This document shows, piece after piece, positions 1 through 19,438 of a stretch of DNA of 64,000 nt. The notes beneath the pieces were generated by a model. It saw nothing but the letters and a program-made list of their open reading frames with translations. It searched no databases and was not told where the DNA came from. A program made the translations under genes and the position numbers. The first letter of the stretch is position 1. Each line of letters starts with the position of its first letter. Source of the DNA: Candidatus Saccharimonadales bacterium (GTDB lineage: Bacteria > Patescibacteriota > Saccharimonadia > Saccharimonadales > UBA10212); contig JBEKOJ010000001.1 of NCBI GenBank assembly GCA_049521895.1, positions 290,717 to 354,716 of the forward strand. The letters are read 5' to 3'.

Positions 1-63
1 GTCAAATCCTAGCAGCCTATGACTTAACCTAAGTCCTTAATTGTTTAAGTCCTTGGGTTGAGT

Positions 64-89
64 GCCCAACCCGGTTTCCCGGGTTGGGC
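64..89 (-). terminator. GC-rich hairpin downstream of ORF 97..495
   Basis: Perfect 11-bp stem GCCCAACCCGG/CCGGGTTGGGC with a 4-nt loop, 8 nt past the stop. No clear T-tract. Confidence 0.4.
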
Positions 90-96
90 TACCCAC

Positions 97-495
97 CTAC
101 TGCTGCGTCTCTTCTGCGGCGATCGTGCCGCCGCTGGTGTGCTTGTTGCCGCATGCGTGGCAGGGTCCCGCCGGACCGCTCTCACGAGTCCAGCCGGGAC
201 CGTGGTTGTGCCGCCCGATCTCGTCGTACGTGAGCGGGTCGTAGTGGTAGATGCGAGAGCCGTCGGGCATCTCCCAGTACCAACAGCACGCTCCGCAGCT
301 GGTCACGAATTGCACCTGCTGTCCGGCACGCCGCGCGATGGTCACCTCGCTTGGGATGAAGCGGGCACCGCGACTCATGTCCTCGGCGTCGGAACGAGGG
401 AACGTAGCCCCAACGTCCTCGCCGCCGTCGAACAGCGCGTTCTCAAGTAGACCGAAGGCAGCGCTTTCGGTCATGTATTCGTACCTTTCCGGCAT
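97..495 (-). CDS. Hypothetical protein, GC-rich cassette ORF (Cys/His/Trp-containing, no family recognised)
   Basis: 132-aa ORF with GGAG 5 nt upstream of the ATG. Its amino-acid composition is balanced, whereas the overlapping plus-strand ORFs are Arg/Ala/Val-rich shadows. The sampled line 121-180 is 43/60 G+C. Confidence 0.55.
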   Translation of the reverse strand: MPERYEYMTESAAFGLLENALFDGGEDVGATFPRSDAEDMSRGARFIPSEVTIARRAGQQVQFVTSCGACCWYWEMPDGSRIYHYDPLTYDEIGRHNHGPGWTRESGPAGPCHACGNKHTSGGTIAAEETQQ

Positions 496-647
496 CAGAG
501 CTCCTATCTGAGTAGGTGGGGTTCTGGTATCGCTCGCGCGATCACCTTGTTGTCACATCTTCTATGACAGGTTTAACTATAACATAATAGAATAAAATAA
601 TCAATATTGGGTAATCCGGCTGAGAACCTGGCCGAACCCGTCGAAGA

Positions 648-670
648 CTAACCGGCCGCCCCTTTTGAGC
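648..670 (+). repeat. Cassette-junction repeat R1
   Basis: CTAACCGGCCGCCCCTTTTGAGC, with the following base A instead of G. Confidence 0.9.
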
Positions 671-672
671 AG

Positions 673-1041
673 TTATTTAACTGGGTGCCAGAAACATAGC
701 TTATAGCCATCCGAATCTTTGACTATAAATTCCCTGTTGCCCCAGTCCCAACTTTTTGGCTTAGTTGCTGGTGCTATACCGATATTTACTAATTCATCAT
801 ATTTTTCATCAACGTCATCAACACGTATATAGACATACATGCCTTTGCCCTTTTCAGCCGATAAAGAGTCTCTGGCAAATTTTTCTTCGTCCCTCATATT
901 GATTAGCCATATCTCAAAGCCGTCTAAGCTAACAACTGAATGGTTGTCGTCCGAGCGGACGATGTCAAAGCCGAGTTTCTTGTAGAACTTTTCGCTCAGC
1001 TTGTTTTCTTGAACCCAAAACAAAAGGTTTGTTATCTTCAT
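673..1041 (-). CDS. VOC family protein (glyoxalase/bleomycin-resistance-like)
   Basis: 122 aa, with VOC-like size and sequence (FYKKLGFDIV..., ...DSDGYKLCFWHP). The stop codon lies 2 nt from R1. Confidence 0.75.
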   Translation of the reverse strand: MKITNLLFWVQENKLSEKFYKKLGFDIVRSDDNHSVVSLDGFEIWLINMRDEEKFARDSLSAEKGKGMYVYIRVDDVDEKYDELVNIGIAPATKPKSWDWGNREFIVKDSDGYKLCFWHPVK

Positions 1042-1092
1042 GGCTTAAATTTCGCACCACTCCTATCTGACTTCAAGGTCAGATTTACAACA

Positions 1093-1116
1093 CTAATCGG
1101 CCGCCCCTTTTGAGCG
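1093..1116 (+). repeat. Cassette-junction repeat R2
   Basis: CTAATCGGCCGCCCCTTTTGAGCG (one C>T relative to the other copies). Confidence 0.9.
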
Positions 1117-1122
1117 TAGTGG

Positions 1123-1151
1123 TTGCATTATCAACGTTATTATTGTAAAAT
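1123..1151 (+). promoter_or_regulatory. Putative sigma70-type promoter of cassette ORF 1189..2016
   Basis: TTGCAT (1123-1128), a 17-nt spacer, then TAAAAT (1146-1151). AAGGAG at 1174-1179 lies 9 nt before the ATG at 1189. Confidence 0.5.
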
Positions 1152-1188
1152 ATCTTCGACGTTTCCGACGAGCAAGGAGTGACACCCA

Positions 1189-2016
1189 ATGCCGTTGCTT
1201 ACGTGGTACCGCATTATGCGCACCCTACCGGGTGTGGTGTTCGGATTTATCTTCCTCGGCGCCGGCACTTACATTGCCCTCGCCCCTGTCTCCTACCGGA
1301 ACCCCAACAACCCCAAGCTGGTCGCCTACGCCAACAGCATGCACCCAGTCGTAATTGCGATCGGCGTGATTGCCGTGCTGGCAGGACTGGGCTTCTTGTA
1401 CTTCGGAGTTACCAGGTACTTCCGGATGCCGGAATACCTTCGGGAGTTCACATACGAGCAGCTTCGGCTGGGCCGGGCTCTAGCCCGTGAGATTGTCCGG
1501 CTAACATCGGAGAAAGATTTCCACCATCGCTCCGTCAAGTACGACGATGGCTCGGAGGTTAGTCTCTCCGCCTACAGCTACTACGAACGTGGCAGGATGT
1601 CCTGGAGCCGGTCTCTGTTCTACGGATTCGGGGAGACAGTCTCGTTCACTCATGCAAAGCCGCCCACCGAAGTCGATGGAGTACTACACGTACCGGAAGT
1701 CAGGTTCCACATCGACACATTCTCGGGCAAGGGCAGCCGTCACGAATCGGTCGAGCAGTACGAGATCCGGGAGGAGCCCCCAGTCCTCGAAGGTGAGGCC
1801 GCTGAGTTCCTGAAGTTCGCAATCAGGGAAACCGGTACAAGTGAGGAGTGGGAGGAAGAGCTGGAGTCGCTCACAGAGCCCCGATTCACAACCGTCCGTC
1901 TCGATCGCGAAGTCGATGATCCCGGCGCGTACTACAGGTTCATGAGGCAGATGGGGCTGGACAAGCCCTCAGCCGAAGAACTTCGGCTGGCGCTCGATGA
2001 GCTCAAAGGATGGTGA
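1189..2016 (+). CDS. Hypothetical protein with two N-terminal TM helices and an acidic C-terminal domain; GC-rich cassette ORF
   Basis: 275-aa ORF with a strong SD. Hydrophobic stretches VVFGFIFLGAGTYIALA and VVIAIGVIAVLAGLGFLYF. No family recognised. Confidence 0.7.
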   Translation: MPLLTWYRIMRTLPGVVFGFIFLGAGTYIALAPVSYRNPNNPKLVAYANSMHPVVIAIGVIAVLAGLGFLYFGVTRYFRMPEYLREFTYEQLRLGRALAREIVRLTSEKDFHHRSVKYDDGSEVSLSAYSYYERGRMSWSRSLFYGFGETVSFTHAKPPTEVDGVLHVPEVRFHIDTFSGKGSRHESVEQYEIREEPPVLEGEAAEFLKFAIRETGTSEEWEEELESLTEPRFTTVRLDREVDDPGAYYRFMRQMGLDKPSAEELRLALDELKGW

Positions 2017-2023
2017 CGTCACA

Positions 2024-2068
2024 GCCCCGCAAGCGTTTTAATGAAGACGCTCCGCGGGGCGTCTTCAT
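2024..2068 (+). terminator. Hairpin region after cassette ORF (two mutually exclusive stems)
   Basis: One fold pairs GCCCCGC..AGCGT with ACGCT..GCGGGGC. The alternative is a perfect 10-bp stem ATGAAGACGC/GCGTCTTCAT (2041-2050 with 2059-2068) followed by ATATAT. Confidence 0.45.
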
Positions 2069-2088
2069 ATATGGCCACAGGAATTCAT

Positions 2089-2112
2089 CTAACCGGCCGC
2101 CCCTTTTGAGCG
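2089..2112 (+). repeat. Cassette-junction repeat R3
   Basis: CTAACCGGCCGCCCCTTTTGAGCG. Confidence 0.9.
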
Positions 2113-2118
2113 GATGTT

Positions 2119-2847
2119 TTGATATATAATTCGGACATGACCAAAGGTGAGGTCGAGGCGTTGGCTAAAGATGTGCTCGAAAAGATATTCAGAAATAACG
2201 AGCGCAAAGGTCTGATGGCTGTCTATCTCTGGGGTTCGATTATTACCCCAGAGTTTGATCCCGAAAACAGTGACGTAGATGCAGTTGGTATCCTCTCAGA
2301 TGAAGCCATCTTTGCGGAGTTTAATGAAATGCGTAACTGGCTCCCCTCCATCGAGCCAGGATTGAAGCGTTTGCAAATAAATTTTTTCTACTTGAGTGAG
2401 CTTATAGGCGGCCCAGTTCGCAGCAACCTAGCTCGTTTAGCAAGTCCTGAGCAAGCGGTATTTGATTTCCCATACTGGAAGCATGTCTGTGGCAAGAAAA
2501 TTGCAAGCTCGGATTTACCAAAGGTTACTGCCAAGCAAGCTCTTAAAGATCAGGTGGGGCTTACTAAGATGAGAATGGGCTGGGTAAAAGACGGTGCTTA
2601 CGGCGACATGGGTTTGGAATATTTTTGCAAGAGCCTTGTTTGGCTTTGTTATAACATCCACAAATTATCTTCGCCGCCTGAGCGTTTTTCCTGGAAGAGT
2701 CTCGATTCTGAAACGACTGACGAGACCAAAGGGATGGTAGAGGTTTTACTCGATCTCAAATCGAAGCACTGGGCTAAAGAGACTATTCGAGAACAACTTC
2801 CTTGGCTTGAACGAACCGCAAAAACTCTGATCGCAAAGTACTCCTAA
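2119..2847 (+). CDS. Nucleotidyltransferase-domain protein (ANT/AadA-like architecture)
   Basis: Minimal NTase signature G-S-x(n)-D-x-D in LWGSIITPEFDPENSDVDAVGIL. The TAA stop (2845-2847) lies inside repeat R4. The ATG at 2137 is an alternative start. Confidence 0.7.
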   Translation: MIYNSDMTKGEVEALAKDVLEKIFRNNERKGLMAVYLWGSIITPEFDPENSDVDAVGILSDEAIFAEFNEMRNWLPSIEPGLKRLQINFFYLSELIGGPVRSNLARLASPEQAVFDFPYWKHVCGKKIASSDLPKVTAKQALKDQVGLTKMRMGWVKDGAYGDMGLEYFCKSLVWLCYNIHKLSSPPERFSWKSLDSETTDETKGMVEVLLDLKSKHWAKETIREQLPWLERTAKTLIAKYS

Positions 2848-2867
2848 CCGGCCGCCCCTTTTGAGCG
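2844..2867 (+). repeat. Cassette-junction repeat R4
   Basis: CTAACCGGCCGCCCCTTTTGAGCG. Its TAA is the stop codon of the upstream ORF. Confidence 0.9.
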
Positions 2868-2911
2868 TGCTTATGCTTGCAATTTGTGGCACTCAACCAT
2901 AGTGTATTTTT

Positions 2912-3457
2912 ATGGCTAACCCAGAAAAATCTGAACTTATTGTAGAAAGATTACAAACATACACATCCAAAGACGCCGAACAGCTAGGTCTTTTAAGAAA
3001 CGCTCTTAGCTCGGACCGGTCGAGCGATGCGCTTAGCCCTAGAAGAATAGCTTTATTTACAGAGCATGAAGAACGCGCTTTGATTGCCGCAAGAGTGGCG
3101 GATTCTGGAAGAATTGTCGCCTGCGAGACTATAGCGGGCACCCCTGTATTAGAGGCAAGAGAGGAAGACTCGGATATGTTCGGCTGGTTAGGTTTTGTAT
3201 CTACCCTACCGGAAGATCGCAACCTTGGAATTGGCAAGCAAGTTGCAATCGCAGGCATGCGGTGGTGCCAAGACCTTGATATCCGAGAATTAAAATTTAC
3301 ATCCAACTCACATAACACCGAACGGGCAATAGCCAGAGCGACGTATCTAAAATATGGTGCCGTAATCGTTGCCAAGGGCGTTGGCCCAAAAGACACCGAC
3401 ATGTTCAACTGGAGCGTCCAGACTGGCCTAGAAAAACTTACAGCCGGCATTAGCTAA
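2912..3457 (+). CDS. GNAT family N-acetyltransferase
   Basis: 181 aa with an acetyl-CoA motif A-like segment (VSTLPEDRNLGIGKQVAIAGMRW). The TAA stop (3455-3457) lies inside R5. Confidence 0.7.
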   Translation: MANPEKSELIVERLQTYTSKDAEQLGLLRNALSSDRSSDALSPRRIALFTEHEERALIAARVADSGRIVACETIAGTPVLEAREEDSDMFGWLGFVSTLPEDRNLGIGKQVAIAGMRWCQDLDIRELKFTSNSHNTERAIARATYLKYGAVIVAKGVGPKDTDMFNWSVQTGLEKLTAGIS

Positions 3458-3477
3458 CCGGCCGCCCCTTTTGAGCG
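3454..3477 (+). repeat. Cassette-junction repeat R5
   Basis: CTAACCGGCCGCCCCTTTTGAGCG, immediately followed by TATAAT (3478-3483). Confidence 0.9.
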
Positions 3478-3490
3478 TATAATCCGTTTA

Positions 3491-4096
3491 GTGAGAAAGT
3501 TGAATATTCTTATCGACGAAAGTGTGACTCAGGTGGATAAAAAGTCGATAAGAGTTAGTGTATGTTGTGTTGAGTATCTAGACGATGCTATAAAAGACGA
3601 TTTACAAAAATTACAAGACTCTTTTGAAAAAGATGAAGTCAGATACCCAAAAACTGGCAAAAAGATCCACTTCAGTGAGTTAAACATTGTCCAGCAGTCT
3701 GATATTACGGAAATAATCTCTAAATCCGATATCACAGCCAAGGTCTACGTTTACTACTTCTTGGGCATGGATGAAGCGAGAGCAAAGGTCGCTGCGGTTG
3801 AGGCAACTATACACCATGTACAACTTTTACACCGAACCAGAGACATAGACATATCACTAGAGACAGCTCAAGAATATAAAAGCTCGTCCATCTCAAAATA
3901 CTTATCTGCCGAGAAAACACTCTTTATATTTCCCGATGCCATACTTAGCATCTTTTGTAACTTTCTCGGTAATCAAGACCCTAGAAAAACCGCAGTAAGT
4001 TTGCGGCTATATACGCTCATCAGAGAAAAAATTCGCTTGCAGGTTTTTCGATCGTACCCAAAGATAGAATATAATACTAGACTTCGCCGCCTCTAG
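3491..4096 (+). CDS. DUF3800-like protein, candidate retron effector
   Basis: 201-aa ORF directly upstream of the RT. N-terminal NILIDES and later KKIHFSEL resemble the DES(G) and H-x-x-E signatures I associate with DUF3800 (PF12686). This is from memory, not a search. Confidence 0.45.
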   Translation: MRKLNILIDESVTQVDKKSIRVSVCCVEYLDDAIKDDLQKLQDSFEKDEVRYPKTGKKIHFSELNIVQQSDITEIISKSDITAKVYVYYFLGMDEARAKVAAVEATIHHVQLLHRTRDIDISLETAQEYKSSSISKYLSAEKTLFIFPDAILSIFCNFLGNQDPRKTAVSLRLYTLIREKIRLQVFRSYPKIEYNTRLRRL

Positions 4097-4197
4097 ATTT
4101 GTTATACTTCCATTGCGGGGTTGTTGTTCTGCATCAGAATAACATTGTCGACCTCCAGTAAGAATATTTTTCTAGTGCAACCTCGCACTATGTTTCG

Positions 4198-5145
4198 ATG
4201 ATTCATGATTATATCGCCGTCAAGAAAGACGACTTTGATAGCTTTATCGCCAGGCCTGAAGGTTTTTTCGTACGACAAGGTAAGTTAACAAAACATAAGA
4301 ATAGATTTTCCCAAGATTCTATTTCTGTTAAATTTGACAAATTTATTTATAGTCTCTTGAGAGAATATTTAGCTGCAAAGAGACCTGATCAAGGTGCATT
4401 TGCTAGTAAATCAATTTTTCAGCTCGTACAGCCACATAAAAATTATAAGTACATACTCTGTACCGACATAAGAAATTATTTCGACAGAGTTACGTTCGAT
4501 TTAGTAAAAGAAATAATAGGTAGCAAAGAAAGTGTGTCGCGCTGCTTCCCAGAAATTCAAAAAATTTATTTTGATACTGGTCTCAGAAGGGGGCTAATCG
4601 CCTCCCCGTTATTATCCGAGGTTGTAGGACTTAAAATTGATGGTTTAATTTATCAGTTAGTAGGCGGGGTGGGACGCTCTGACTTCCACTATGCTCGATA
4701 CTATGACGATATCAGTATTTCCTCTAACGATAAGAAAAAATTAGAGCAATTATTAGCACAGTTAAGATCCCGGCTACTAAAAGAATTTGCCATGGAGCTT
4801 AAGGACAAAAAAACTTTCATAAAATTTACTCATGGGTCTAAGGTTTTGGGTCTCACTATTCACAAGGGCAACGTGGTCGTACCGGGGAAATTTAAAAACC
4901 GCTTGCGAGCCATAATGGCGGCTTATGAAACTTTACCTGAAGACGACCTTGATAGCACTTGGGATAAACTGTCTGCAGTTGGGACAATAATTGCCTCGCA
5001 TCATTACATCATCAATAACTCAGATAAAGAAACATCCGAGAAATATAGAGCTTCTATCAGTGATTACTACACCGAGCTGACGAGGTTAGAAGAATTAAAA
5101 GATCGCTTTATCCAACAAGAAGCTGGCGAGAACGCACGGCTTTAA
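4198..5145 (+). CDS. Retron-type reverse transcriptase
   Basis: 315 aa. Matches to RT motifs are LCTDIRNYFDRV (cf. xDIxxFFxSI), LRRGLIASPLLSE (cf. LPQGxxxSPxLxN) and the YxDD box YARYYDDISISS. KKTFIKFTHGSKVLGLTI corresponds to the retron VTG region. Confidence 0.85.
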   Translation: MIHDYIAVKKDDFDSFIARPEGFFVRQGKLTKHKNRFSQDSISVKFDKFIYSLLREYLAAKRPDQGAFASKSIFQLVQPHKNYKYILCTDIRNYFDRVTFDLVKEIIGSKESVSRCFPEIQKIYFDTGLRRGLIASPLLSEVVGLKIDGLIYQLVGGVGRSDFHYARYYDDISISSNDKKKLEQLLAQLRSRLLKEFAMELKDKKTFIKFTHGSKVLGLTIHKGNVVVPGKFKNRLRAIMAAYETLPEDDLDSTWDKLSAVGTIIASHHYIINNSDKETSEKYRASISDYYTELTRLEELKDRFIQQEAGENARL

Positions 5146-5178
5146 ATATCTGTGGGTTTGATTATCGAATTTTGATTT

Positions 5179-5392
5179 GCTGCTTTCATCCTAGATTCGG
5201 GCTCGAGCAAACAGATGAATTTTTGTGCTTTATCTTCGGCATCTTTTGAGCCCTGATTTGATGTTGTCAAAATCAGGCGGCCTTGGGCGCTAAAGCATGT
5301 CCGAAGCAAGGCAAAAAGTTGGGGACTTTTTGCCTTGCAAGATCTTTAGCGAGCCTGATTGTGACAACAGCGTGTCACGGCGAGAAAGCAGC
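5179..5392 (+). ncRNA. Candidate retron msr/msd-like structured RNA (strand uncertain)
   Basis: A 9-bp inverted repeat GCTGCTTTC (5179-5187) / GAAAGCAGC (5384-5392) encloses a 108-nt three-tier hairpin at 5262-5369. The tiers are a 17-bp stem with 1 mismatch, an 8-bp stem, and a perfect 14-bp stem with a 5-nt loop. Confidence 0.3.
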
Positions 5393-5404
5393 CGAGAGTT
5401 TGGC

Positions 5405-5428
5405 GACACCTTTTCGGTAAAAGGTGTC
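5405..5428. other. Perfect 10-bp hairpin
   Basis: GACACCTTTT-cggt-AAAAGGTGTC, flanked on both sides by AGTTTGG. Confidence 0.6.
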
Positions 5429-5490
5429 AAAAGTTTGGTACTTTCCAAAGTAGACCTAAGATTTCTGAAAGAAATCCAGATTTTTCAATT

Positions 5491-5517
5491 CTTCCGGCCC
5501 CGCACCTTTTGCAGGCG
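5491..5517 (+). repeat. Degenerate terminal copy of the cassette-junction repeat (R6)
   Basis: cttCCGGCCccGCaCCTTTTGcAGgCG aligns to CTAACCGGCCGCCCCTTTTGAGCG with about 19 matched positions and 4 inserted nt. Confidence 0.45.
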
Positions 5518-5584
5518 CTTTCGCAATCTGATTACTTACTGCTACCGCCCTGAAAAGAAGCGGGACAAGCATAAATCCTTTGGG

Positions 5585-6778
5585 CTAAGTAAAGAAATCT
5601 ATATCTTTGATCTCTGAGGGCAGGAAACCCTCCGGGTGGCGGAAGCCGGCTTCCCATTTGGTGCCTTTACCATACCCCAAATCCTTCATTAGCTTGGTTG
5701 GGGCATTGCGCAGCTGCAGCGGCACGGGCAGGTCGGGATATTCACGGGCAGCGGCTTGGGCCTTGCCCCAGGCGTTATAAGACTCGCGAGATTTTGGCGC
5801 ACGAGCCAGCACCGTCACGCAGTGCGACAAGTTAATTTGGCATTCCGGCATACCAATCCGCTCTACGGCTAGGAACGTAGAAACCGCCAGGTTGAGCGCG
5901 GCCGGGGCAGCCATGCCTATATCTTCAGACGCAAAAACCACCATGCGCCGGGCCACAAACTTTGGATCTTCCCCGGCTTGCAGCATGCGGGCCATGTAAT
6001 ACAGCGCGGCGGATGGTTGGCTGCCGCGCATGGATTTTATGAAGGCGCTGATGATGTTGTAGTGGTTCTCGCCGGCTTTGTCGTAACCCGGCACCCGTTT
6101 TTGCGCGGCCGCCTGCACGACCTCCGCGGTGATCGCGCCCTTAGTCAGTTGCAACGCTAGTTCAAGATTACTAAGTGCTATACGGGCGTCGCCACCGGAA
6201 ATCTCGGCCAACATATCAATGCCCGCCGCCGGCAGGCGTTTAGCGCTGAGCTTTTCGGCCTTGGCTGCCCGTTTAATAATTTTAATGATCTCTTTCTTGG
6301 TCAGCGGCTCTAGGACCACTACCCGGCTGCGACTTAGTAGCGGCGTAATCACCTCAAAACTCGGATTTTCGGTAGTCGCGCCGATTAAGGTAATCAAGCC
6401 TGACTCGACATGGGGCAAAAAAGCGTCCTGTTGAGCCTTGTTAAACCGATGGATCTCGTCCACGAAAAGAATCGTGCGCTGCGGCCCAGCGGTAGTGTTT
6501 CCCTGCTCGTTGGCCCGCGCCCGCTCCACAGTCCGTGTCACGTCAGCTTTGCCGGTATTAACGGCAGAAATCTCAATAAAATCGGCTTTTAGCTCATTGG
6601 CGATAATCCGTGCCAGCGTGGTTTTGCCGCTGCCCGGAGGCCCCCAAAAAATGAGACTGAACGGCTGGCCGGCTTTGACCAGCTGCTGGATCATTTTGCC
6701 CTCGCCCAGGATGTGCTTCTGGCCGACCACCTCTGACAGTTTACGCGGACGCATGCGGTCCGCCAGTGGATGCTCCAT
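5585..6778 (-). CDS. rarA: Replication-associated recombination protein A (AAA+ ATPase)
   Basis: Walker [26 protein letters not shown], and an MgsA-type C-terminal domain. Confidence 0.9.
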
Positions 6779-6822
6779 GATTCTCTTATTATAGTCCCGA
6801 TCTGAACCAGGCGCATCTTAAA

Positions 6823-6846
6823 AAATACTTAACAAGTCAAGTATTT
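6823..6846. promoter_or_regulatory. 24-bp palindrome, family site A
   Basis: AAATACTTAAC-AA-GTCAAGTATTT (1 mismatch), 45 bp upstream of the rarA start. Confidence 0.4.
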
Positions 6847-7068
6847 TGACGGGGGCCGCGAGCACCGTAGTTCGAAAAAGTTAACCGAGCCCCTAACTTT
6901 TATCCAGACTCGAGGCGAGCCTGAGCAGATGATGTGAAAAAGAGGCGCCCTTGGGTGCGAGGAATGTCTGACGAAGCTAGATTGTCGGGTGGCAATCTAG
7001 CGAGGAGTTCCGCAGCAAGCCTGTTTCTGACATCAGATGCGTCAAGTTAGCCGAATGTCTGGGAAAAG

Positions 7069-7977
7069 TCAGGGGCGAGGGTTTAAATCGTGGCCGCCGA
7101 ATTTGTTGCGCATGGCGGCAAGCAGTTTGGTGGCGAAGGTCACCTGCCCTTTTTGGCTGGCTAGCCGGACATCGAATGACTGGCGGATGGCTGGCGTGTC
7201 GATGCCGTACTGTTCGGCGACTTCCAGTGTCCAGCAGGCCTCGCCGGATTCAGCCACCCGACCGTCTATCCCCTGAAGTTCTGGGTTTTCGGCAAGAGCT
7301 TGACGTGACAGTTCGTTAAGCCAAGATGTGACCACGCTGCCGTGCTGCCAAACTTCGCCGGCGGCCGCCAAATCTAGCTCCTTATACGGGCCTTCTTTAA
7401 GCACCCGGTAGCCTTCGGCCAAGCTTTCCATCATGCCGTACTCGATAGCGTTGTGGACCATCTTGACGAAATGCCCGGCCCCGCTGCCGCCAAAATATTG
7501 GTAGGCGCCGCTGGGCTGGGCCAAGGTTTTAAGGGCCGGCTCTAACTGCTTGAACGATGCCTCATCGCCGCCAGCCATCATCGAAAAGCCATTCTTATAA
7601 CCCCACACGCCGCCGCTGGTGCCAACATCCATGAAACTACTGCCGGCGGCTTTGACCCGCTCGGCGCGGGCTTTGTCATGCCGAAAGTCCGAGTTGCCGC
7701 CATCAATTATTAAGCTGCCTTTGGGAACGAGTTTTAGCCACTCGTCCAGCTGGGCATCAATAATTTCCGCCGGCAGCATGATCCAAAGCACTACCAGCCG
7801 ACCGTCAAAGGCTGCAACAACGTCCTCTTTTTTATAAGCGGCCTTGGCTCCGTGCTTGACTGCTTCGTCAATCGGCTCAGGGCTGCGGTTATTGGCAATT
7901 ACTTCGTGCCCGCCCTCGGCCAGTTTTTGAGCAATCTGTCCGCCCATCCGCCCCAGTCCACTGATAGCTATTTTCAT
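7069..7977 (-). CDS. gnd: 6-phosphogluconate dehydrogenase, decarboxylating (short ~300-aa form)
   Basis: N-terminal Rossmann motif GLGRMGGQIA and a 6PGDH-like core (HFVKMVHNAIEYG). Confidence 0.85.
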   Translation of the reverse strand: MKIAISGLGRMGGQIAQKLAEGGHEVIANNRSPEPIDEAVKHGAKAAYKKEDVVAAFDGRLVVLWIMLPAEIIDAQLDEWLKLVPKGSLIIDGGNSDFRHDKARAERVKAAGSSFMDVGTSGGVWGYKNGFSMMAGGDEASFKQLEPALKTLAQPSGAYQYFGGSGAGHFVKMVHNAIEYGMMESLAEGYRVLKEGPYKELDLAAAGEVWQHGSVVTSWLNELSRQALAENPELQGIDGRVAESGEACWTLEVAEQYGIDTPAIRQSFDVRLASQKGQVTFATKLLAAMRNKFGGHDLNPRP

Positions 7978-8255
7978 CCCGTTAGAGCCAGGAAACGCTT
8001 GTTCCTATTTTTTAGGTAGCGTTTACCCGTTCCTGTCTTTAGATACTTTTCTCTTGCGAAGGCGTCATTCGAGTTCATACAAGCTTCATAATATATCAGC
8101 TCGTATGGACCTCGAAATTTGGTGTAAGTGGACTTTCCTGATTGATGCTGGCTTAAGCGTTTCCGTAGGTCAGACGCGCATCCCGTGTATAGCCTGCCGT
8201 TTTCGGGATTGCGAAGAACATAAACGTAAGTCATACTGGCTCTAACGGGATTCAC
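7974..8255 (-). CDS. GIY-YIG nuclease-domain protein
   Basis: YVYVLRN...GRLYTGCASDLRKRLSQH matches the GIY-YIG/UPF0213 pattern. It has 4-nt overlaps with both neighbouring genes. Confidence 0.75.
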   Translation of the reverse strand: MNPVRASMTYVYVLRNPENGRLYTGCASDLRKRLSQHQSGKSTYTKFRGPYELIYYEACMNSNDAFAREKYLKTGTGKRYLKNRNKRFLALTG

Positions 8256-10378: not shown

Positions 10379-11125
10379 TTAGGCTTGGATGCGGTTGAAG
10401 CGGTTAACGGCAAAAGCCACGCAAACTACGAGCATGATAGTGATTACAACCAGGTCTTTGGCTAAGCCAAAGTGCGATTGGTGGATCATGGTATAACGCA
10501 AAGCATCAACACAATATGTCAATGGATTAACCTCAGACATAACGCGCAGAAACGTCGGCACATTGGTCAAGGGGTACAATGCGCCAGATAGAAAATATAG
10601 CGGGAAAATAATAAAGTTGTTGATGCCCTGAAACCCCTGAAAATCTTCCACGATACTAGCCAAGCCGGCGCCAAAACTAGTCAGCGCCAGGCAAAGCGCC
10701 AACATTACCAGGAAACTTACCGGAAAATAGACCCAGTTATATGGCCGAAAACCCAGGGCAATCGAAATTACCAGTACGAAAAGGCCTTGGAGCAACGAGA
10801 TTGTGGCGCCGCCTAGGGCATTACCCAGCAAGACACGCAAGCGTGAGACCGGCGCCACCAGCATCTCTTTTAAGAAGCCGAAGCGTTTATCGAATAGGAT
10901 TTGGATGCCCCAGAAGACACCAGAGAATAATATGGTTTGCACGATGATGCCCGGTACCAAAAATTGCAGGTAGTTTCCCTCTCCGGCTTTTTTATAAACC
11001 GAGCCCAAGCCGTAGCCCAGAGCCAGCAAGAACAGGATTGGCTGGCCGATGGCGCCCAACACCCGTGAACGGCTGCGTACGTAGCGCTTCATCTGCCGCA
11101 GCCAAAGAATGTAAACAGCATCCAC
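10379..11125 (-). CDS. ABC-2 type transporter permease
   Basis: 248 aa, about 6 TM. ABC-2 family layout, start/stop-coupled to the ATPase gene. Confidence 0.8.
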   Translation of the reverse strand: MDAVYILWLRQMKRYVRSRSRVLGAIGQPILFLLALGYGLGSVYKKAGEGNYLQFLVPGIIVQTILFSGVFWGIQILFDKRFGFLKEMLVAPVSRLRVLLGNALGGATISLLQGLFVLVISIALGFRPYNWVYFPVSFLVMLALCLALTSFGAGLASIVEDFQGFQGINNFIIFPLYFLSGALYPLTNVPTFLRVMSEVNPLTYCVDALRYTMIHQSHFGLAKDLVVITIMLVVCVAFAVNRFNRIQA

Positions 11126-11931
11126 TAGCGGAGCCTTTCATTTCTGCGGGCTGTACGGACATTTAAGCCATTGTTGCTCAGACTGGTTTCATCGCGGACT
11201 TCTCTACCGGTAAGCTCCAGATAGGCCTCTTCCAGACTTTTGGTTTTGGTCTGCTTGGCCAGCTGTTCTACCGTACCGGTAGCGACAATTTGTCCATGGT
11301 CGATAATGGCGATGCGGTCGGCTACGGCTTCAGCCTCATCTAAATAATGCGTAGTAAAGAATATGGTTGTACCTTTGGTATCGTTAAGTTTTTTCACGTA
11401 ATCCCACAATAGGTTGCGGGTCTGGGTATCTAGCCCCAACGTCGGCTCATCCAAAAATAAAATTTCCGGATGGTGCAGCAGGCCGCGGGCAATTTCCAGC
11501 CGGCGGCGCATACCGCCCGAAAAAGTTTTTACATACGAATCCTTGCGTCCCCAAAGATCTACTAATCTAAGCAGCTCTTCTATACTGGCTTTTTGCTGCG
11601 GTTTGGGAACGTGGTATAAAACGGCGTGGATCTGCATGTTTTCGTAAGCTGTTAGCTCTTCTTCCAGCGCCGGATCCTGAAAAACTATTCCAAAAGCTTT
11701 GCGGGCTGAATCCTGTTCGTGGGTCACATCGTGTCCGTTCAGCAAAAGCGTGCCGCTGGTTGGCCTAAGCATGGTGGTCAGCATGCTAATGGTAGTACTT
11801 TTGCCAGCGCCGTTAGGCCCGAGGAACGCAAAAATTTCCCCGGATTCCACCTCAAAGCTGATTCCTCTGACGGCTTTGATATCACCGAAGTTCTTCACCG
11901 CATTGCGGGCCACAATGACCGATTTTGACAC
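11125..11931 (-). CDS. ABC transporter ATP-binding protein (DrrA-like)
   Basis: Walker A GPNGAGKST, signature FSGGMRRRLEIA, Walker B ILFLDEPT. Confidence 0.9.
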   Translation of the reverse strand: MSKSVIVARNAVKNFGDIKAVRGISFEVESGEIFAFLGPNGAGKSTTISMLTTMLRPTSGTLLLNGHDVTHEQDSARKAFGIVFQDPALEEELTAYENMQIHAVLYHVPKPQQKASIEELLRLVDLWGRKDSYVKTFSGGMRRRLEIARGLLHHPEILFLDEPTLGLDTQTRNLLWDYVKKLNDTKGTTIFFTTHYLDEAEAVADRIAIIDHGQIVATGTVEQLAKQTKTKSLEEAYLELTGREVRDETSLSNNGLNVRTARRNERLR

Positions 11932-12124
11932 TACTTAGCTATTATAAACTACCAACCAGCGGCTTTTTAAGTACGGACTAGCGATTAACACTGGCCGGTT
12001 AATTGACTCTTGGCGACAAGGGTTAAAACTGTTAGACTAATAAGCAAATGGCTTGTGGGAAAATCCAAACGACCAGTAAAAGATCGCTGCCAGCTGTTAG
12101 CCTAACCGCGGGTGGGGTTTTTTA

Positions 12125-12958
12125 ATGTTGGCCCTACCTGCTTTTGGCTTAAACATAGAGCCGTTAGCTGCCCAAAAGTTATTCAGCATCGGGCCGTTGC
12201 CTGTCACCAATGCTATGTTCTTTGGCACAATCACTGCTGTTTTTACGGTTCTACTGCTTTTAGCCGCGGTACGCTCAACCCAGTTGCAGCCGCGCTCGCG
12301 CCTGGCCTACTACACGGAACTTTTAATCGGGGGGATTTGGGGTGTGGCGGTTGATACTTTTGGTGATCGTAAAAAAGCCCTCAAGCACCTGCCTCTGCTG
12401 GCAACATTGTTTACCTTTATCCTGATTGGCAATCTGTCGGGCTCAGGCATATTGCCGGGCGTAGGCACCATTACTGCTCACAGCGGCGGTCAAATCACAC
12501 CTCTACTGCGGCCTTTCACAACCGACCTTAATGCCACCCTGTCCATGGCCTTACTGACCATCGGCCTGGTGCAGTTTTATGCCTTGCGCCAACTCGGACT
12601 AAGCAAGCATTTTCGCCATTATTTTGCCCGACCGTTGTGGAATCCCTTGAACATCTTCATGGGGCTAAATGAAATATTCAGTGAGCTGCTGAGAATTGTC
12701 ACGTTGTCCATGCGGTTGTTTGGAGTGATTTATGCTGGCGAGGTACTGATCAGCGCTGTTGGGCAACTAGCCGGTAATTTTGCCTGGATAGCTACAGTGC
12801 CAGTCGTTTTGCTGGAAATTTTCTTTTCCCTTATCCAGGCCTACGTTTTCATGATGCTGAGCGCTACCTATATAGCAGTTGCTACAGAGGATAGCGAGAA
12901 GCGCAGTAATTCCGTTCAAGAACACGGCAACGAGCAAAGGTTACAAGAAGTAAGTTAA
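12125..12958 (+). CDS. atpB: F0F1 ATP synthase subunit a
   Basis: Polytopic protein with the conserved Arg region (LSMRLFGVIYAGEVL). First gene of the atp operon. Start uncertain. Confidence 0.8.
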   Translation: MLALPAFGLNIEPLAAQKLFSIGPLPVTNAMFFGTITAVFTVLLLLAAVRSTQLQPRSRLAYYTELLIGGIWGVAVDTFGDRKKALKHLPLLATLFTFILIGNLSGSGILPGVGTITAHSGGQITPLLRPFTTDLNATLSMALLTIGLVQFYALRQLGLSKHFRHYFARPLWNPLNIFMGLNEIFSELLRIVTLSMRLFGVIYAGEVLISAVGQLAGNFAWIATVPVVLLEIFFSLIQAYVFMMLSATYIAVATEDSEKRSNSVQEHGNEQRLQEVS

Positions 12959-12973
12959 GTAAAAGGAGCAGGT

Positions 12974-13192
12974 ATGAACCACGTAGATCCATCATTAATC
13001 AAAGGTTTAGCCATCGGCTTTGGTGCTATTGGCCCGGCTATCGGCGTAGGGCTTATCGGCGCTTCAGCCGTCGGCGCCATTGGCCGTAATCCGGAAATGC
13101 AAGGGCGGATATTATCGACCGCATTTGTTATGGCCGGTTTGGTCGACGCCGTTTTGGCCTTCGTACTACTAATCGTATTTACAACTAGTTAG
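12974..13192 (+). CDS. atpE: F0F1 ATP synthase subunit c
   Basis: 72-aa hairpin proteolipid: GRNPE loop and a carboxylate in helix 2 (GLVDAV). Confidence 0.85.
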   Translation: MNHVDPSLIKGLAIGFGAIGPAIGVGLIGASAVGAIGRNPEMQGRILSTAFVMAGLVDAVLAFVLLIVFTTS

Positions 13193-13317
13193 CAAGGACT
13201 CGCACATATGGCACATTCCTGCGTTAAAAACTGCGCTTCGCATTCACTGTATGTCAAATACAGTTCTTTTGCGGTGCTCGCTTTTTCCTTGGACTATGCT
13301 CACATGTGCGAGTCTTG
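13193..13317. repeat. Structured insert between atpE and atpF
   Basis: An 11-bp perfect long-range pairing, GACTCGCACAT (13197-13207) with ATGTGCGAGTC (13304-13314), encloses about 95 nt. ACAACTAGT occurs at 13181-13189 and 13341-13349. Confidence 0.4.
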
Positions 13318-13335
13318 CGGATGGGAGTGGCGTAG

Positions 13336-13866
13336 TTGATACAACTAGTGTCTCAATTTAGTAGCAGCTCCAGTGGAATTTCCAGCTTGGGACTTAACTT
13401 AAAGTCATTCATATTCCAGCTGATTACTTTCCTGATAGTCCTTTTAATTTTAAGTCGCTGGGTTTTCCCCAGATTGGTAGCTACACTCGAAAAAAGGCGC
13501 GAGGCGCTAGAACGTAGTTTGGAGCAAGCCAAAGCGACCGAAGAGACGCTAAAAGCTGCGGAAGAAAAAGCCGATAAACTACTCCATAGGGCCCGCGAAC
13601 AGGCCGACGTTTCGTTAACTGACGCTAGCAAAAAAGCCAAGGCTGTGATTACCGATGCCGAGTCCGCCGCCGGTGAAAAAGCTGGCCGGATTATCAAGGA
13701 CGCCCAAGCCCACCTGGCACAGGAGCACGAGCGGCTGCACCAGGAATTAAGAAGCGAGCTGGCAGATTTAGTAATCCGTACCACCGAAAGGGTAGTCCGT
13801 CAAAAACTTGACAAAGAAACCGATAAGCAGCTGGTGGAAACCGCCATCAAGGAGCTCAAATCATGA
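13336..13866 (+). CDS. atpF: F0F1 ATP synthase subunit b
   Basis: N-terminal TM helix followed by a long charged coiled coil. Operon position. Confidence 0.8.
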   Translation: MIQLVSQFSSSSSGISSLGLNLKSFIFQLITFLIVLLILSRWVFPRLVATLEKRREALERSLEQAKATEETLKAAEEKADKLLHRAREQADVSLTDASKKAKAVITDAESAAGEKAGRIIKDAQAHLAQEHERLHQELRSELADLVIRTTERVVRQKLDKETDKQLVETAIKELKS

Positions 13867-14255
13867 TTTCACTGTCGCGCAGGCATTTAGCCCGTTATGG
13901 CGCTGCCCAGTTAATCGCCGGCCAGCCGGTCGTGATAGTTGCCCGTGAGCTTGGCTCCGTACTGCTCGAAAGTAAGCGTGCCAAAGAAGCCGACATGCTG
14001 GTTGCCGATATCGCCTGGGAGCTAGAAAGCCGCGGCAAAGTCGCCAACGTTAAAGTAACCAGTGCTTTTCCGCTGACCCTATCGCTAAAACGCGATATCC
14101 AAAAGTTCGTTAAAGACGCGGCTAAAGTCGATAACGTGATATTAGATGAGCTGACAGATAAGAAAGTGCTTGGGGGCATGCGGATAGAAACTGCTGCCCA
14201 TGCTTGGGATAAAACCGTCGCCCGGGCATTGTCTGACATACGGGAGGAGTTCTAG
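13863..14255 (+). CDS. atpH: F0F1 ATP synthase subunit delta (short, 130 aa)
   Basis: Operon position between b and alpha. C-terminal GGMRIE...WD resembles the OSCP/delta C-terminus. Confidence 0.65.
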   Translation: MISLSRRHLARYGAAQLIAGQPVVIVARELGSVLLESKRAKEADMLVADIAWELESRGKVANVKVTSAFPLTLSLKRDIQKFVKDAAKVDNVILDELTDKKVLGGMRIETAAHAWDKTVARALSDIREEF

Positions 14256-15818: not shown

Positions 15819-18575
<2,757 letters not shown>

Positions 18576-18886: not shown

Positions 18887-19438
18887 TTATTGGCTCCCCC
18901 CGCTGGTGCTAGTGGTTGTTGCCACAGATTTAACTCCGGTTATCAGACCTTGTACCGACGACTTGTAGGCTTGCAATGCCGTGACTTCGCCGTTGACATC
19001 ATCTTTAAATTGCTGGAGCGTGCCCAGTGGGTCAGTGCCGGAACAACTAAAGCTGGTGCTGTCGGTCTTGACCTGGTTAACCGCGCTCTGGGCGGCAGTT
19101 TTGTCGGTATTTACCATGGTCACCAGCGCGTTGTAGTTACTTAAGGTCTTGCCGCTTTTAGTGTAAAAGTTCTCAACCTTTGTAGCGACATCTGTGATGA
19201 GCGCCAGATGGCGGTTGCCGCGGTTGGTAATTCTGGTCAAAATTCCATCTATAACGCTCTGGCGGGCCGTACATACTTTTAACTTAGCTGCGTCCAGCCT
19301 GGCGCTAGCCGCTGCCTGGGCCGTCGAACTGGTCGTCGCCAGAGCAAACGCCGGCGCTAGCACTGCCATCGGAGCGCCGGCGATGACCAGTGTGCCACCG
19401 GCCACGATTAGCGCTGATCGAAGTTTCACTTTTCGCAT
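18887..19438 (-). CDS. Secreted hypothetical protein
   Basis: N-terminal signal-like MRKVKLRSALIVAGGTLVIAGAPMAVLAPAFA. Adjacent to the pilin-like gene. Confidence 0.6.
   Translation of the reverse strand: MRKVKLRSALIVAGGTLVIAGAPMAVLAPAFALATTSSTAQAAASARLDAAKLKVCTARQSVIDGILTRITNRGNRHLALITDVATKVENFYTKSGKTLSNYNALVTMVNTDKTAAQSAVNQVKTDSTSFSCSGTDPLGTLQQFKDDVNGEVTALQAYKSSVQGLITGVKSVATTTSTSGGSQ

Follow-up and report, generated by a model that had tools for sequence, protein, structure and literature searches.

Anatomy of the locus

The window, the whole 64,000-nt stretch of DNA that was analyzed, comes from a 0.78-Mb MAG of Candidatus Saccharimonadales. Saccharibacteria are very small parasitic bacteria. 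The left end of the window carries a gene-cassette array of mostly single, unrelated genes, placed between FMN_bind/ApbE on the left and rarA on the right, a fixed chromosomal site in a clade of Candidatus Saccharimonadales. The following features were located:

1–647: right-hand 647 nt of cassette 1, which starts 72 nt left of the window, following junction R0
97–495 (−): ORF of cassette 1, 132 aa, GC-rich (GC 0.57)
648–671 (+): junction R1, CTAACCGGCCGCCCCTTTTGAGCA; profile HMM E = 1e-8
673–1041 (−): cassette 2, VOC/glyoxalase (bleomycin-resistance-like) protein, 122 aa; Pfam Glyoxalase, 1.8e-8
1093–1116 (+): junction R2, CTAATCGGCCGCCCCTTTTGAGCG; sequence match and profile HMM
1117–2088 (+): cassette 3, complete transcription unit with promoter, SD, ORF and terminator
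1189–2016 (+): ORF of cassette 3, 275 aa, membrane-anchored
2089–2112 (+): junction R3; sequence match and profile HMM
2119–2847 (+): cassette 4, nucleotidyltransferase-like ORF; weak Pfam Polbeta match; NCBI call of 236 aa
2844–2867 (+): junction R4, then a type-B promoter segment, GTGCTTATGCTTGCAA
2912–3457 (+): cassette 5, GNAT acetyltransferase-like ORF, 181 aa, named GNAT by JGI; stop codon is the R5 TAA
3454–3477 (+): junction R5; profile HMM E = 6e-11; then GTATAAT and a GTG start 6 nt on
3491–4096 (+): last cassette, first gene, 201-aa protein, conserved partner of the reverse transcriptase (RT)
4198–5145 (+): retron-type RT, 315 aa, YYDD motif; RVT_1, 5e-16
5229–5252 (+): junction-like motif TTTATCTTCGGCATCTTTTGAGCC, possible degenerate right-hand site; 65% match
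5236–5395: near-perfect hairpin of about 160 nt, with 43-nt arms and an inner 14-bp hairpin
5468–5584: conserved 115-nt element, beginning with a rarA 3'-end relic and containing the 5491–5517 motif
5585–6778 (−): rarA/mgsA, right boundary gene, a conserved boundary in all relatives examined

Five exact plus-strand matches to CTAAYCGGCCGCCCCTTTTGAGC started at 648, 1093 (C>T at position 5), 2089, 2844 and 3454, where the initial annotation had placed five same-orientation copies; dinucleotide shuffles gave a chance expectation of 0, and the 64 kb held no further match. The start-to-start spacing was 445, 996, 755 and 610 nt. Run over 74 kb, a profile HMM of 31 distinct junctions matched only these five copies and two just left of the window: R0, 56 nt from the edge, where a HAD hydrolase gene has its stop codon, and a degenerate copy upstream of that gene, at the array end. 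The array as a whole has six exact and one degenerate junction copies in a single orientation, and its left boundary is a positionally conserved degenerate first site adjoining FMN_bind/ApbE. The array had been expected to continue leftward, and it does so by one exact and one degenerate copy, but it stops about 0.7 kb beyond the edge.

As first described, each interval between copies holds one plausible ORF, in either orientation (673–1041, minus; 1189–2016, 2119/2137–2847 and 2912–3457, plus), and the composition is mosaic, with cassette GC values of 0.57, 0.41, 0.57, 0.46, 0.48 and 0.39. Cassette 1, whose ORF (97–495) matched no Pfam family, carries a terminator-like hairpin (63–90) and a promoter region (496–647). 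The VOC ORF stops at 673, 1–2 nt past R1, and a homologous VOC cassette is carried, also on the minus strand, by a sister species. Cassette 3 has signals of its own, as had been proposed: TTGCAT-17-TAAAAT (1123–1151), an AAGGAG SD (1174–1179) and a terminator hairpin (2041–2068). The likely start of cassette 4 is the ATG at 2137, 6 nt past TATAAT (2125–2130), and its stop is the R4 TAA.

The TAA of the repeat serves as the stop codon of the ORFs ending at 2847 and 3457, and TAA occupied positions 2–4 in 30 of 32 distinct junction contexts. A −10 hexamer directly followed the junction in 15 of these 32, with a start codon 4–10 nt later in 14 of the 15. Minus-strand cassettes keep the 24-mer without TATAAT; therefore, the 24-mer is not merely a promoter. 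Similarity had been thought to stop at about 24 nt, but subclasses extend past the 24-mer (GTATAAT, GTGCTTAYGCTTGCAA and a TTGCAT promoter type). The 24-mer core was 100% conserved across species whose rarA genes are about 77% identical in nucleotides, which suggests that a sequence-specific protein may bind it. Junction variants were uniform within an array and specific to a lineage (a 55-mer in L089, a 60-mer in L080, a prefix in L095), resembling in this the attC sites of chromosomal integrons, which are species-specific.

Past the fifth copy come two genes, and one of them is an RT, a DNA-processing gene that had been overlooked at first. The RT matched PADLOC RT_II-A/III-A (1e-24) and, under the NCBIfam cutoff, retron_St85_RT (5e-23), and its top PDB matches were retron RTs. 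The 201-aa partner had no match in Pfam, NCBIfam or PDB; in L015 and L016, the RT homologues are preceded by partners 39–44% identical to it. By sequence, the pair resembles a two-gene, retron-type defense-like module. The RT clusters with retron RTs, and a conserved accessory gene lies directly upstream, as the effector precedes the RT in retron St85/Sen2; the differences from retrons are that an msr/msd ncRNA was looked for here and not found, that the retron score is under the cutoff and that the partner has no known family. The RT is array cargo and not machinery, because the arrays of L051, L063, L078, L089 and L095 lack it; elsewhere, RT and a partner of about 200 aa form a two-gene module in unrelated contexts that do not have the repeat.

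At the right-hand end, the motif TTTATCTTCGGCATCTTTTGAGCC is not statistically significant by itself (profile HMM E = 3.3); it also opens other segments in L045 and L051. The hairpin at 5236–5395 gave z = −8.6 on both strands; its conservation in L051 is 81%, and 2 pairs are compensatory. The degenerate copy previously marked at 5491–5517 gave no hit with the junction profile (E > 10) and falls inside the rarA 3'-end relic, which was translated by hand. The surrounding element (5468–5584) is about 88% identical to L089 17874–17990, and L089 also carries rarA C-terminal relics.

Cassette turnover and the exchange point

In related species, with flanking genes 67–78% identical in nucleotides, locus and junction were the same but the genes between the copies differed. 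In L078, whose RarA is 92% identical, the gene set between HAD and rarA was wholly different, and the HAD gene is itself a variable cassette. One sister population showed at least 4 array haplotypes with shared flanks at least 99% identical, and haplotype homology stopped inside the junction. The 275-aa cassette was bounded by junctions in the window, L043 (84% nucleotide identity), L089 and L095. The same cargo occurred with different junctions in different lineages and with none at all in L097. The site is therefore not just carried along by the cassette. About 20 contigs of the window's own species, from different peat samples, all had the identical array, and thus no ongoing activity was seen in that species.

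Polymorphisms at repeat position 8 onward went with the right (downstream) cassette in 7 of 7 same-left/different-right pairs. Three pairs were same-right/different-left, and in the clearest of them position 1 went with the left (upstream) cassette. This distribution places the exchange point within TAACCG. At the HAD end in L078, CTAACC is followed by AGCC, with divergence after position 6. A second class of breakpoints fell after position 15 (following CCCC), and single-gene inserts were also flanked by other direct repeats of 16–24 nt (GCGGGCTCTATTCCCC, CCCAAACCCCAGAATTT); neither is predicted by a single fixed cleavage site.

Proposed mechanism and alternatives

Recombinase genes were sought near the array. 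Pfam annotation of the genes called in the 10 kb to each side showed none, a recombinase motif regex over 74 kb gave no match, and none was found among ten further window ORFs or among the array genes of the relatives examined, in line with the first reading, which had seen no recombinase. The junctions also differ from attC, as had been noted, with no dyad symmetry, no hairpin and a folding z of about 0. Dyad symmetry is a feature of the core sites of classical tyrosine and serine recombinases, and its lack in the junction counts against a recombinase of these kinds. The earlier proposal of a gene-capture array distinct from IntI/attC thus stood for the cassette array and its junctions, whereas the dedicated recombinase is a presumption.

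A cassette unit opens with junction positions 8–24 (GCCGCCCCTTTTGAGCG) and closes with nTAACCG; between them lie one ORF, which may face either way, and in most cases a promoter of the unit's own. The promoter of a forward gene is typically GTATAAT with the start codon 6–8 nt on, which would imply leaderless mRNA, and the forward ORF takes its stop from the TAA. In the proposed mechanism, recombination between junction copies would add, remove and re-order cassettes, possibly through circular intermediates, with strand exchange inside the 6-nt TAACCG. The catalyst would be a putative site-specific recombinase acting in trans, encoded elsewhere in the 0.78-Mb genome, which would recognize the conserved right arm in double-stranded form and accept variation in the left arm; Xer recombinases tolerate degenerate XerC arms. 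We hold with about even confidence that the locus is an integron-like cassette array with a new, short, asymmetric site and such an enzyme.

RecA-type short-homology recombination or duplicative insertion could yield the same pattern. The former is a serious rival, although we consider it rather doubtful. The junction would then be a portable homology block of 24–33 nt, retained for its stop codon and promoter, and host RecA or RecA-independent annealing would shuffle the array with no dedicated recombinase, within the chromosome and with DNA from natural transformation. Saccharibacteria are naturally competent, no recombinase lay near any array examined, and arbitrary direct repeats of 16–33 nt flanked single-gene inserts (L078 12697/13297, the GCGGGCTCTATTCCCC pairs, and a 33-nt duplicate in L055 at 12139/12922), as Campbell-type integration through any shared short segment would leave them. 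One haplotype joined a 99.8%-identical left flank to a rarA only 88% identical, which shows large-scale homologous exchange across the locus, and the rarA 3'-end relics indicate repeated recombination at that end. However, spread crossovers should have split some of the position-8-onward polymorphisms, which followed the right cassette in all seven pairs; 24 nt is at the lower limit for RecA-dependent exchange; a perfect 24-mer across species with about 75% identical housekeeping DNA is hard to maintain by second-order selection for recombinability; and the first acquisition of junctions by foreign GC-rich genes is left unexplained.

Duplicative insertion, which we rate as improbable, would copy the target as in CRISPR adaptation or casposons: an integrase would place foreign fragments into a junction, and its staggered cuts at the junction ends would be repaired with duplication of the junction, and every insert would end up flanked by the host's own repeat. 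It fits the invariance of junction copies within an array, the recurrence of one cargo with lineage-specific junctions or with none (L097), the nested inserts with non-canonical direct repeats of similar length, and a two-cassette block in L055 with a 33-nt variant junction duplicated around it. Against this, junction variants co-segregated with the downstream cassette and not on both sides of the insert, cassettes with the same boundaries recurred in different contexts, duplication lengths would need to range from 16 to 33 nt, and a cas1/casposase gene was not found in the 74 kb or in the relatives' flanks.

The two remaining readings were already disfavored. A static, vertically inherited cluster, with the 24-mer as operator, promoter or insulator and species differences due to deletions only, is very improbable: about half of the junctions directly precede a −10 hexamer and start codon, and the array is invariant in the window's own species, but the 24-mer is equally conserved at R0 and R1, where adjacent genes point in the other direction and TATAAT is absent, overlaps upstream stop codons, is confined to this locus within 74 kb, and separates cassettes of GC 0.39 to 0.57 that differ as wholes between populations with 99%-identical flanks. 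Retro-insertion by the neighboring RT, with transcripts copied and cDNAs inserted at the repeat, has the RT gene in the cassette starting at the last full copy, R5, in its favor and is scarcely credible given the five RT-less arrays, the repeat-free RT-partner modules, the retron type of the RT, and cassettes that include promoters and terminators and lie in both orientations.

Comparison with known systems

In CRISPR and casposon arrays, too, unrelated inserts are separated by invariant repeats of about 24 nt, for the most part non-palindromic and all in the same orientation, and one array end is degenerate; here, however, the "spacers" are genes with promoters, of 230–1750 nt, no cas genes are present, and repeat variants track the downstream insert. 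The pdif modules of Acinetobacter plasmids and IMEX at dif are small modules with short (28-bp) sites served by host recombinases in trans, and one site arm is well conserved and the other degenerate, as here. The junction differs in having no 11-6-11 dyad and is unlike the dif consensus sequences familiar to us; pdif modules alternate in orientation, whereas all junctions here are direct.

SCCmec/SCC islands (rlmH, 15-bp direct repeats, Ccr) and tRNA-gene island arrays also have units separated by short non-palindromic direct repeats. As in SCC-type accretion at a gene 3' end, the first full copy here overlaps the HAD stop codon, units without a recombinase would be mobilized in trans, and at the opposite boundary the rarA 3'-end relics follow this logic as well. 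SCC units measure 10–60 kb, whereas those here hold one gene in 0.25–1.8 kb; no unit of any array examined encodes a recombinase, and the HAD gene is itself a variable cassette, absent from L048-type species.

Sedentary chromosomal integrons (the Vibrio superintegron with its VCR repeats) and CALINs share with this locus a fixed array of mostly single-gene cassettes with same-orientation sites, near-identical within a lineage and different between lineages. The first site adjoining the conserved flank is unique in both, and cassette content varies strongly between close relatives. A stop codon lies inside the site, as with RYYYAAC in attC, and the exchange window contains AAC/GTT, the bottom strand (G|GTTAG) being close to GTTRRRY. 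However, attC is 55–140 nt long with an R''/L''-L'/R' palindrome, whereas the junction has 24 nt and neither palindrome nor hairpin; attC follows its gene, whereas most of the conserved site here precedes the gene and belongs to the downstream cassette. No intI lies near the array, the cassettes have their own promoters and no common Pc, and the host is a CPR bacterium.

The cargo (VOC/ble-like proteins, NTase, GNAT, HAD, methyltransferases, isochorismatase, small membrane proteins and the retron-type RT module) resembles that of integrons, comparable classes being VOC/ble, NTase, GNAT, methyltransferases, small unknown proteins and a defense-type module. Because different genes lie between the same tags in related strains, the array looks like a platform for swapping genes, one that works as an integron does but has neither the integron enzyme nor its folded DNA sites.

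Extent and distribution of the junction repeat

The 24-nt junction repeat CTAAYCGGCCGCCCCTTTTGAGC was detected five times on the plus strand of the 64-kb window, at 648, 1093, 2089, 2844 and 3454 (R1 to R5), with starts spaced 445, 996, 755 and 610 nt apart. No further match was found in the window with up to three mismatches, and none of 100 dinucleotide-preserving shuffles contained a match, so the five same-orientation copies of the initial annotation were recovered in full. The array had also been expected to run past the left edge of the window. It does so by a single further exact copy (R0, at -79 to -56 in window coordinates), which supplies the TAA stop codon of a gene for a 199-aa HAD hydrolase, and by a degenerate copy, AGATAAGCCCGCCCCTTTTGAGCGTATAAT, upstream of the HAD gene (E=5e-6 with a profile built on 31 junctions); the left end of the array is 0.7 kb outside the window. 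Ordinary genes follow (FMN_bind, ApbE, an NqrF-like reductase, Fur, Zip, YkuD and RmuC), and the array therefore comprises six exact sites and one boundary site, with rarA (5585-6778) as its right-hand bound. Another degenerate copy, proposed at 5491-5517, was undetected by the junction profile (E>10) and sits in a relic of the rarA 3' end.

Outside the array, neither the motif scan nor the junction profile revealed a copy in the window plus a 10-kb left extension (74 kb in all). A search of 185,579 GTDB species-representative genomes with the 18-nt core returned only 14 single matches, in unrelated phyla and without the flanking TAAC...G context, which are chance matches. True copies (TAAC...GAGCG context) were present in 14 JGI metagenome contigs, several of which hold two to four copies when mismatches are allowed. 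Every true-match contig with flanking genes represented the same locus, with all copies in the same orientation and with flanks whose nucleotide identity to the window was 67-76% (NqrF-like/ApbE/FMN_bind) and 77-78% (rarA). A dispersed repeat of the REP/BIME/MITE type was rejected, since the 74 kb contained none beyond the array itself and the metagenome copies were confined to one locus; the scatter of a REP-like sequence, which the initial annotation had considered, was seen neither there nor in GTDB. A phage or plasmid origin of the junction was rejected as well: the 18-nt core had no match in IMG/VR, four junction patterns had no exact match in that database, and blastn of 1-5600 against PLSDB and INPHARED returned nothing. 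GC skew was uninformative for the position of the locus relative to the terminus.

Junctions were uniform within a lineage and different between lineages, as are attC sites in chromosomal integrons. In the metagenome contig L089 (RarA about 79%), the array spans 13 kb and holds about 18 small genes, and six of its junctions (junction region 10894-15424) consist of (TAA)CCGCCCGCCCC, an invariant 26-mer and CCCCTTTGAGCG. Four junctions of L080 (RarA 82%; 12144-14825) have a 35-nt prefix, CTGTTCCACCCCACGCGCGYGCGTTC..., before a degenerate core, and this prefix contains the palindrome CACGCGCGTG. Three junctions of L095 (250-1910) have a 20-nt prefix and read CTGGGYCAAACCCCAAARAATAAYCCC, the first continuing into TAACCCCGCCCCCTTT. 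A run of four C was observed in all lineage-specific junction modules. No array was found in L084 (RarA 81% identical). A bacterial type IB topoisomerase gene, encoding an enzyme whose chemistry is related to that of tyrosine recombinases, lies near FMN_bind in this contig (18402-19406), with no evidence of a link to the arrays.

Two further observations concern DNA outside the array. The region at 30000-34140 is GC-poor at 30-33 kb (0.37-0.44), followed by a GC-rich 292-aa ORF of no family (33010-33888, minus strand) that adjoins a tRNA-Gln gene (34065-34138, minus strand), and may be another foreign-DNA island. Small stand-alone GIY-YIG ORFs of 93-104 aa (window 7974-8255, minus strand; L017 15836-16150) are wedged among housekeeping genes on both sides of the array.

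Cassette anatomy, cargo and turnover

A cassette begins with junction positions 8-24 (GCCGCCCC...), usually has its own promoter, contains one ORF and ends in nTAACCG. The following cassette ORFs were identified in the window.

97-495, minus strand, cassette ORF
673-1041, minus strand, VOC/glyoxalase ORF
1189-2016, plus strand, cassette ORF (275 aa)
2119/2137-2847, plus strand, cassette ORF whose stop is the TAA of the next repeat
2912-3457, plus strand, cassette ORF whose stop is the TAA of the next repeat

The ORFs per interval, their occurrence in both orientations and the last two stops at the repeat TAA were as first described, and same-orientation sites with about one ORF per interval are a feature shared with integrons. 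The mosaic composition was likewise confirmed, GC alternating by cassette between 0.39 and 0.57 (0.57, 0.41, 0.57, 0.46, 0.48, 0.39). Cassettes are typically 254-1000 nt long. The cargo includes enzymes (HAD, VOC, NTase, GNAT, an LCM-type methyltransferase, isochorismatase, and Erm-like and PCMT methyltransferases), an HTH_17 protein, a GHKL ATPase and many small membrane or unknown proteins.

When 32 distinct junction contexts were compared, positions 2-11 and 16-23 were near-invariant, and TAA occupied positions 2-4 in 30 of them. A -10-like hexamer, typically GTATAAT, directly followed the junction in 15 of the 32 contexts, with a start codon 4-10 nt after the hexamer in 14 of these 15, so that leaderless mRNAs are predicted for such cassettes. 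Other junctions were followed by recurrent promoter segments (GTGCTTAYGCTTGCAA, or the TTGCAT-17-TAAAAT type), and some cassettes have predicted -35/-10 elements and terminators of their own; a simple sigma-70 and terminator scan gave no more sites than in shuffles. Forward ORFs usually end at the TAA of the next junction.

The ORF at 4198-5145, overlooked in the initial annotation, encodes a reverse transcriptase (RT) of the retron type (Pfam RVT_1, 5e-16). Homology assigns it to the retron clade: its best matches were to PADLOC retron RT models (1e-24), its top PDB matches were retron RTs, and it matched NCBIfam retron_St85_RT at 5e-23 with 82 bits, below the cutoff of 235. A 201-aa ORF without known family (3491-4096) precedes it, and the pair recurs at 39-47% identity in two unrelated metagenome contigs, both free of the junction repeat, in one of which it adjoins an MmeI-like type IIG restriction-modification gene. 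The two-gene module is probably an anti-phage defence cassette. For an msr/msd ncRNA, there was no Rfam match and no inverted repeat conserved among the window, L015 and L016. A near-perfect hairpin of ~160 nt at 5236-5395 (z = -8.6 on either strand; no Rfam match) was rejected as the msd because it is also conserved in L051, which has no RT, and is absent from L015 and L016. Its counterpart in L051 (3628-3832) is 81% conserved, with compensatory outer-stem changes and a different inner loop; the left arm of the hairpin begins with the junction-like TTCGGCATCTTTTGAGCC, which also starts other segments in L045 and L051.

L078, the nearest relative obtained (RarA 92% identical), shares the HAD cassette and boundary site with the window, but from HAD to rarA it has a completely different gene set (ORFs of 61, 189 and 149 aa, a 70-aa TM protein and DUF5677). 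At least four array haplotypes were present in a sister-species population (JGI Ga02653xx samples) with shared flanks 99.4-100% identical, and haplotype homology ended inside the junction, L055 (12150) and L056 (12011) parting after CTAACCGGCCGC. Between L055/L051 and L073/L059, the left flank was 99.8% identical and rarA only 88%, indicating a large recombination tract that ends inside the array. The 996-nt cassette with the 275-aa gene was 84% identical in L043 from junction to junction, next to another left neighbour, and recurred, junction-bounded, in L089 and L095; in L097, the same unit lies between nrdR and another gene without any junction. The minus-strand VOC cassette was common to more than one species. 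The comparison of cassettes between strains suggested in the initial annotation thus showed content that varies among relatives at a conserved platform, as in integrons. In the window's own species, the array was identical in all ~20 contigs (peat metagenomes), and no current activity is therefore seen there. Judged from these sequence comparisons, the locus is very probably a mobile-cassette array of some kind.

Comparison with integrons and other known systems

An integron has an adjacent intI gene, encoding a tyrosine recombinase with an IntI-specific insertion, and its cassettes lack promoters and depend for expression on a common Pc beside attI; its attC sites are imperfect palindromes of 55-140 bp (R''-L''...L'-R') that form hairpins as single strands. 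The array differs from an integron in both defining properties, the adjacent IntI and the folded attC. No Phage_integrase family member was present in the Pfam labels of called genes up to 10 kb on either side, and no match to box-II HxLRH or serine-recombinase regexes was found in 74 kb of the 776-kb genome. No recombinase was found among ten further window ORFs, among 16 array ORFs from relatives or, by PDB search, in a 380-aa ORF adjoining rarA in L089. The absence of a recombinase from the window, as first noted, was upheld by the Pfam labels, the regexes and the ten extra ORFs; nor did a recombinase, for which a search to the left of the first repeat had been suggested, appear in the leftward extension. 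The sole DNA-binding candidate among cassette products, a 109-aa protein with an HTH_17 (excisionase/MerR-type) domain encoded in an L075 cassette (window orientation 296-625), is a weak lead for a recombinase hunt.

No inverted repeats were found around the five window junctions, and no GTTRRRY partner was found within 130 nt of junctions. Folds of 131-nt single-stranded DNA from both strands of the five junctions gave z of -0.1 to +0.8, showing no excess stability over shuffles. R2 was the exception, its z of -2 to -3.4 being due to a hairpin in flanking sequence. Rfam yielded no match on 1-7000. The junction was therefore rejected as an attC, in agreement with the initial view that it has no dyad symmetry of that kind. 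Cassettes also appear to carry their own promoters, with no common-Pc pattern, unlike those of integrons. The array nonetheless works like a sedentary chromosomal integron.

A Xer/dif site (pdif, IMEX) is 28 bp long, with two inverted arms of about 11 bp and a central region of 6-8 bp, and such modules require the host's XerC/XerD (or XerS/XerH). In contrast, the junction has no dyad, the only palindrome within the 24-mer being CGGCCG, and its left side is variable coding sequence in which only CTAAC is conserved; no Xer-like gene was found in the 74 kb examined (Pfam labels, regexes). The array resembles SCC-type tandem accretion in that short direct repeats flank the units and the first site overlaps a gene's stop codon (R0, HAD), a gene that is itself variable between species. 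It differs from SCC-type and island arrays in its single-gene units, none of which encodes a recombinase; no recombinase family was found in the cassette ORFs scanned or in precomputed Pfam labels. CRISPR arrays have short uniform spacers of 25-50 nt, whereas the intervals here are 254-1775 nt overall and contain genes, and no cas genes were annotated within 10 kb on either side.

Putative exchange point, competing mechanisms and significance

To locate the exchange point, pairs of junctions with one neighbouring cassette in common were compared. In seven pairs with the same upstream and an unrelated downstream cassette, the repeat polymorphisms (positions 8, 12-15, 19, 21, 23 and 24) all followed the downstream cassette. 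In the clearest of three pairs with the same downstream and a different upstream cassette, position 1 followed the upstream cassette. Where HAD ends in L078, the match to the window runs only as far as CTAACC. These comparisons place the putative exchange window at TAACCG, positions 2-7, with 6-nt resolution. In integrons, strands are exchanged at a conserved G|TT (AAC) triplet on the cassette boundary. The hexamer contains AAC/GTT, and its bottom strand, G/GTTAG, is reminiscent of the integron core GTTRRRY, which we regard as a lead rather than a test.

The interpretation with most support is an integron-like cassette array, with the junctions as recombination sites of a site-specific recombinase, and it has about an even chance of being correct. 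Strand exchange within TAACCG would be the work of an enzyme whose gene lies elsewhere in the genome. The involvement of a sequence-specific protein is favoured by a 24-mer core kept across species whose housekeeping DNA is roughly 75% identical, by strict orientation, by the fixed exchange window and by conservation regardless of the neighbouring gene's orientation.

Several complications were also observed. A second class of breakpoints lies after the C-run (position 15). Here a left half-site, CTAACCGGCCGCCCC, precedes an insert of one gene that is bounded by direct repeats of another kind, 16-24 nt long (GCGGGCTCTATTCCCC and CCCAAACCCCAGAATTT, the latter resembling the L095 prefix). Such inserts may be secondary-site or short-homology insertions. 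Their repeats lie at L078 12697-12720/13297-13320, about 13876 and 13590, and at L048 4343 and 4965, and each insert begins directly after the left half-site CTAACCGSCCGYCCC. In L055, two copies of a 33-nt variant junction enclose a block of two cassettes. Directly downstream of rarA, a conserved 115-nt element (window 5468-5584) starts with an older rarA 3'-end relic (..GPEELKNLDFF and stop), interrupted by about 72 nt, and L089 contains the rarA 3' end three times with genes between (17874-17990, 19378-19416, 20618-20648), which points to the rarA stop codon as a possible second hotspot of insertion.

The second breakpoints, the 33-nt duplicate, the 99.8%/88% haplotype and the rarA relics fit poorly with a single fixed cleavage site and are expected traces of short-homology or duplicative insertion, so both stay live rivals. 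Homologous or short-homology (Campbell-type) recombination, to which the non-canonical direct repeats also point, is rather unlikely as the explanation of the whole array, and duplicative insertion, which would leave the same second breakpoints, duplicated junction and relics, is improbable. A static regulon is more doubtful still; at R0 and R1, where the gene is oppositely directed, the 24-mer is kept and TATAAT is absent, and the 24-mer is thus more than a promoter. Insertion driven by the RT deserves the least credence, and the RT was ruled out as the engine of the array because arrays without it exist.

Beyond a site-specific recombinase acting on the junctions, we tentatively consider that the array is a gene-capture platform of the CPR clade Saccharimonadales' own, unrelated to integrons, with an enzyme that is neither IntI nor encoded at the locus. 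The substrate of this enzyme would be a short and asymmetric junction of double-stranded DNA, made of C-run modules (TAACCGGCCGCCCC / TTTTGAGCG) with lineage-specific additions; by its recombination or duplication, foreign genes would be assembled into a self-expressed, leaderless single-gene cassette array. There is a substantial chance, at odds somewhat below even, that the underlying enzyme makes the array categorically new. With a junction so short, unstructured and asymmetric, recombination probably follows a chemistry other than that of IntI on folded attC, and the enzyme, once identified, could serve as a compact new cassette-insertion tool.

To our knowledge, integrons are the sole well-understood system that stockpiles single genes in arrays, their cassette genesis is still unexplained, and practically none are known from the Candidate Phyla Radiation; the full-text literature searched did not describe such arrays in Saccharibacteria or Patescibacteria. 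If the proposed platform is real, cassette genesis could be read directly from sequence, as the 275-aa-gene unit is bare in L097 and has three lineage-specific junctions elsewhere; a cargo unit with and without its junction is a rare handle on cassette creation. Tools based on attC, such as IntegronFinder, would miss such arrays, so that counts of cassette reservoirs may be too low for CPR-rich environments, for example peat, rhizosphere and groundwater. For Saccharibacteria, which rely on host bacteria and whose genomes measure about 0.8 Mb, a locus dedicated to swapping accessory genes would be a principal means of adaptation; the accessory genes here include those for detoxification enzymes, methyltransferases and small membrane proteins, and a defence module of the retron type.
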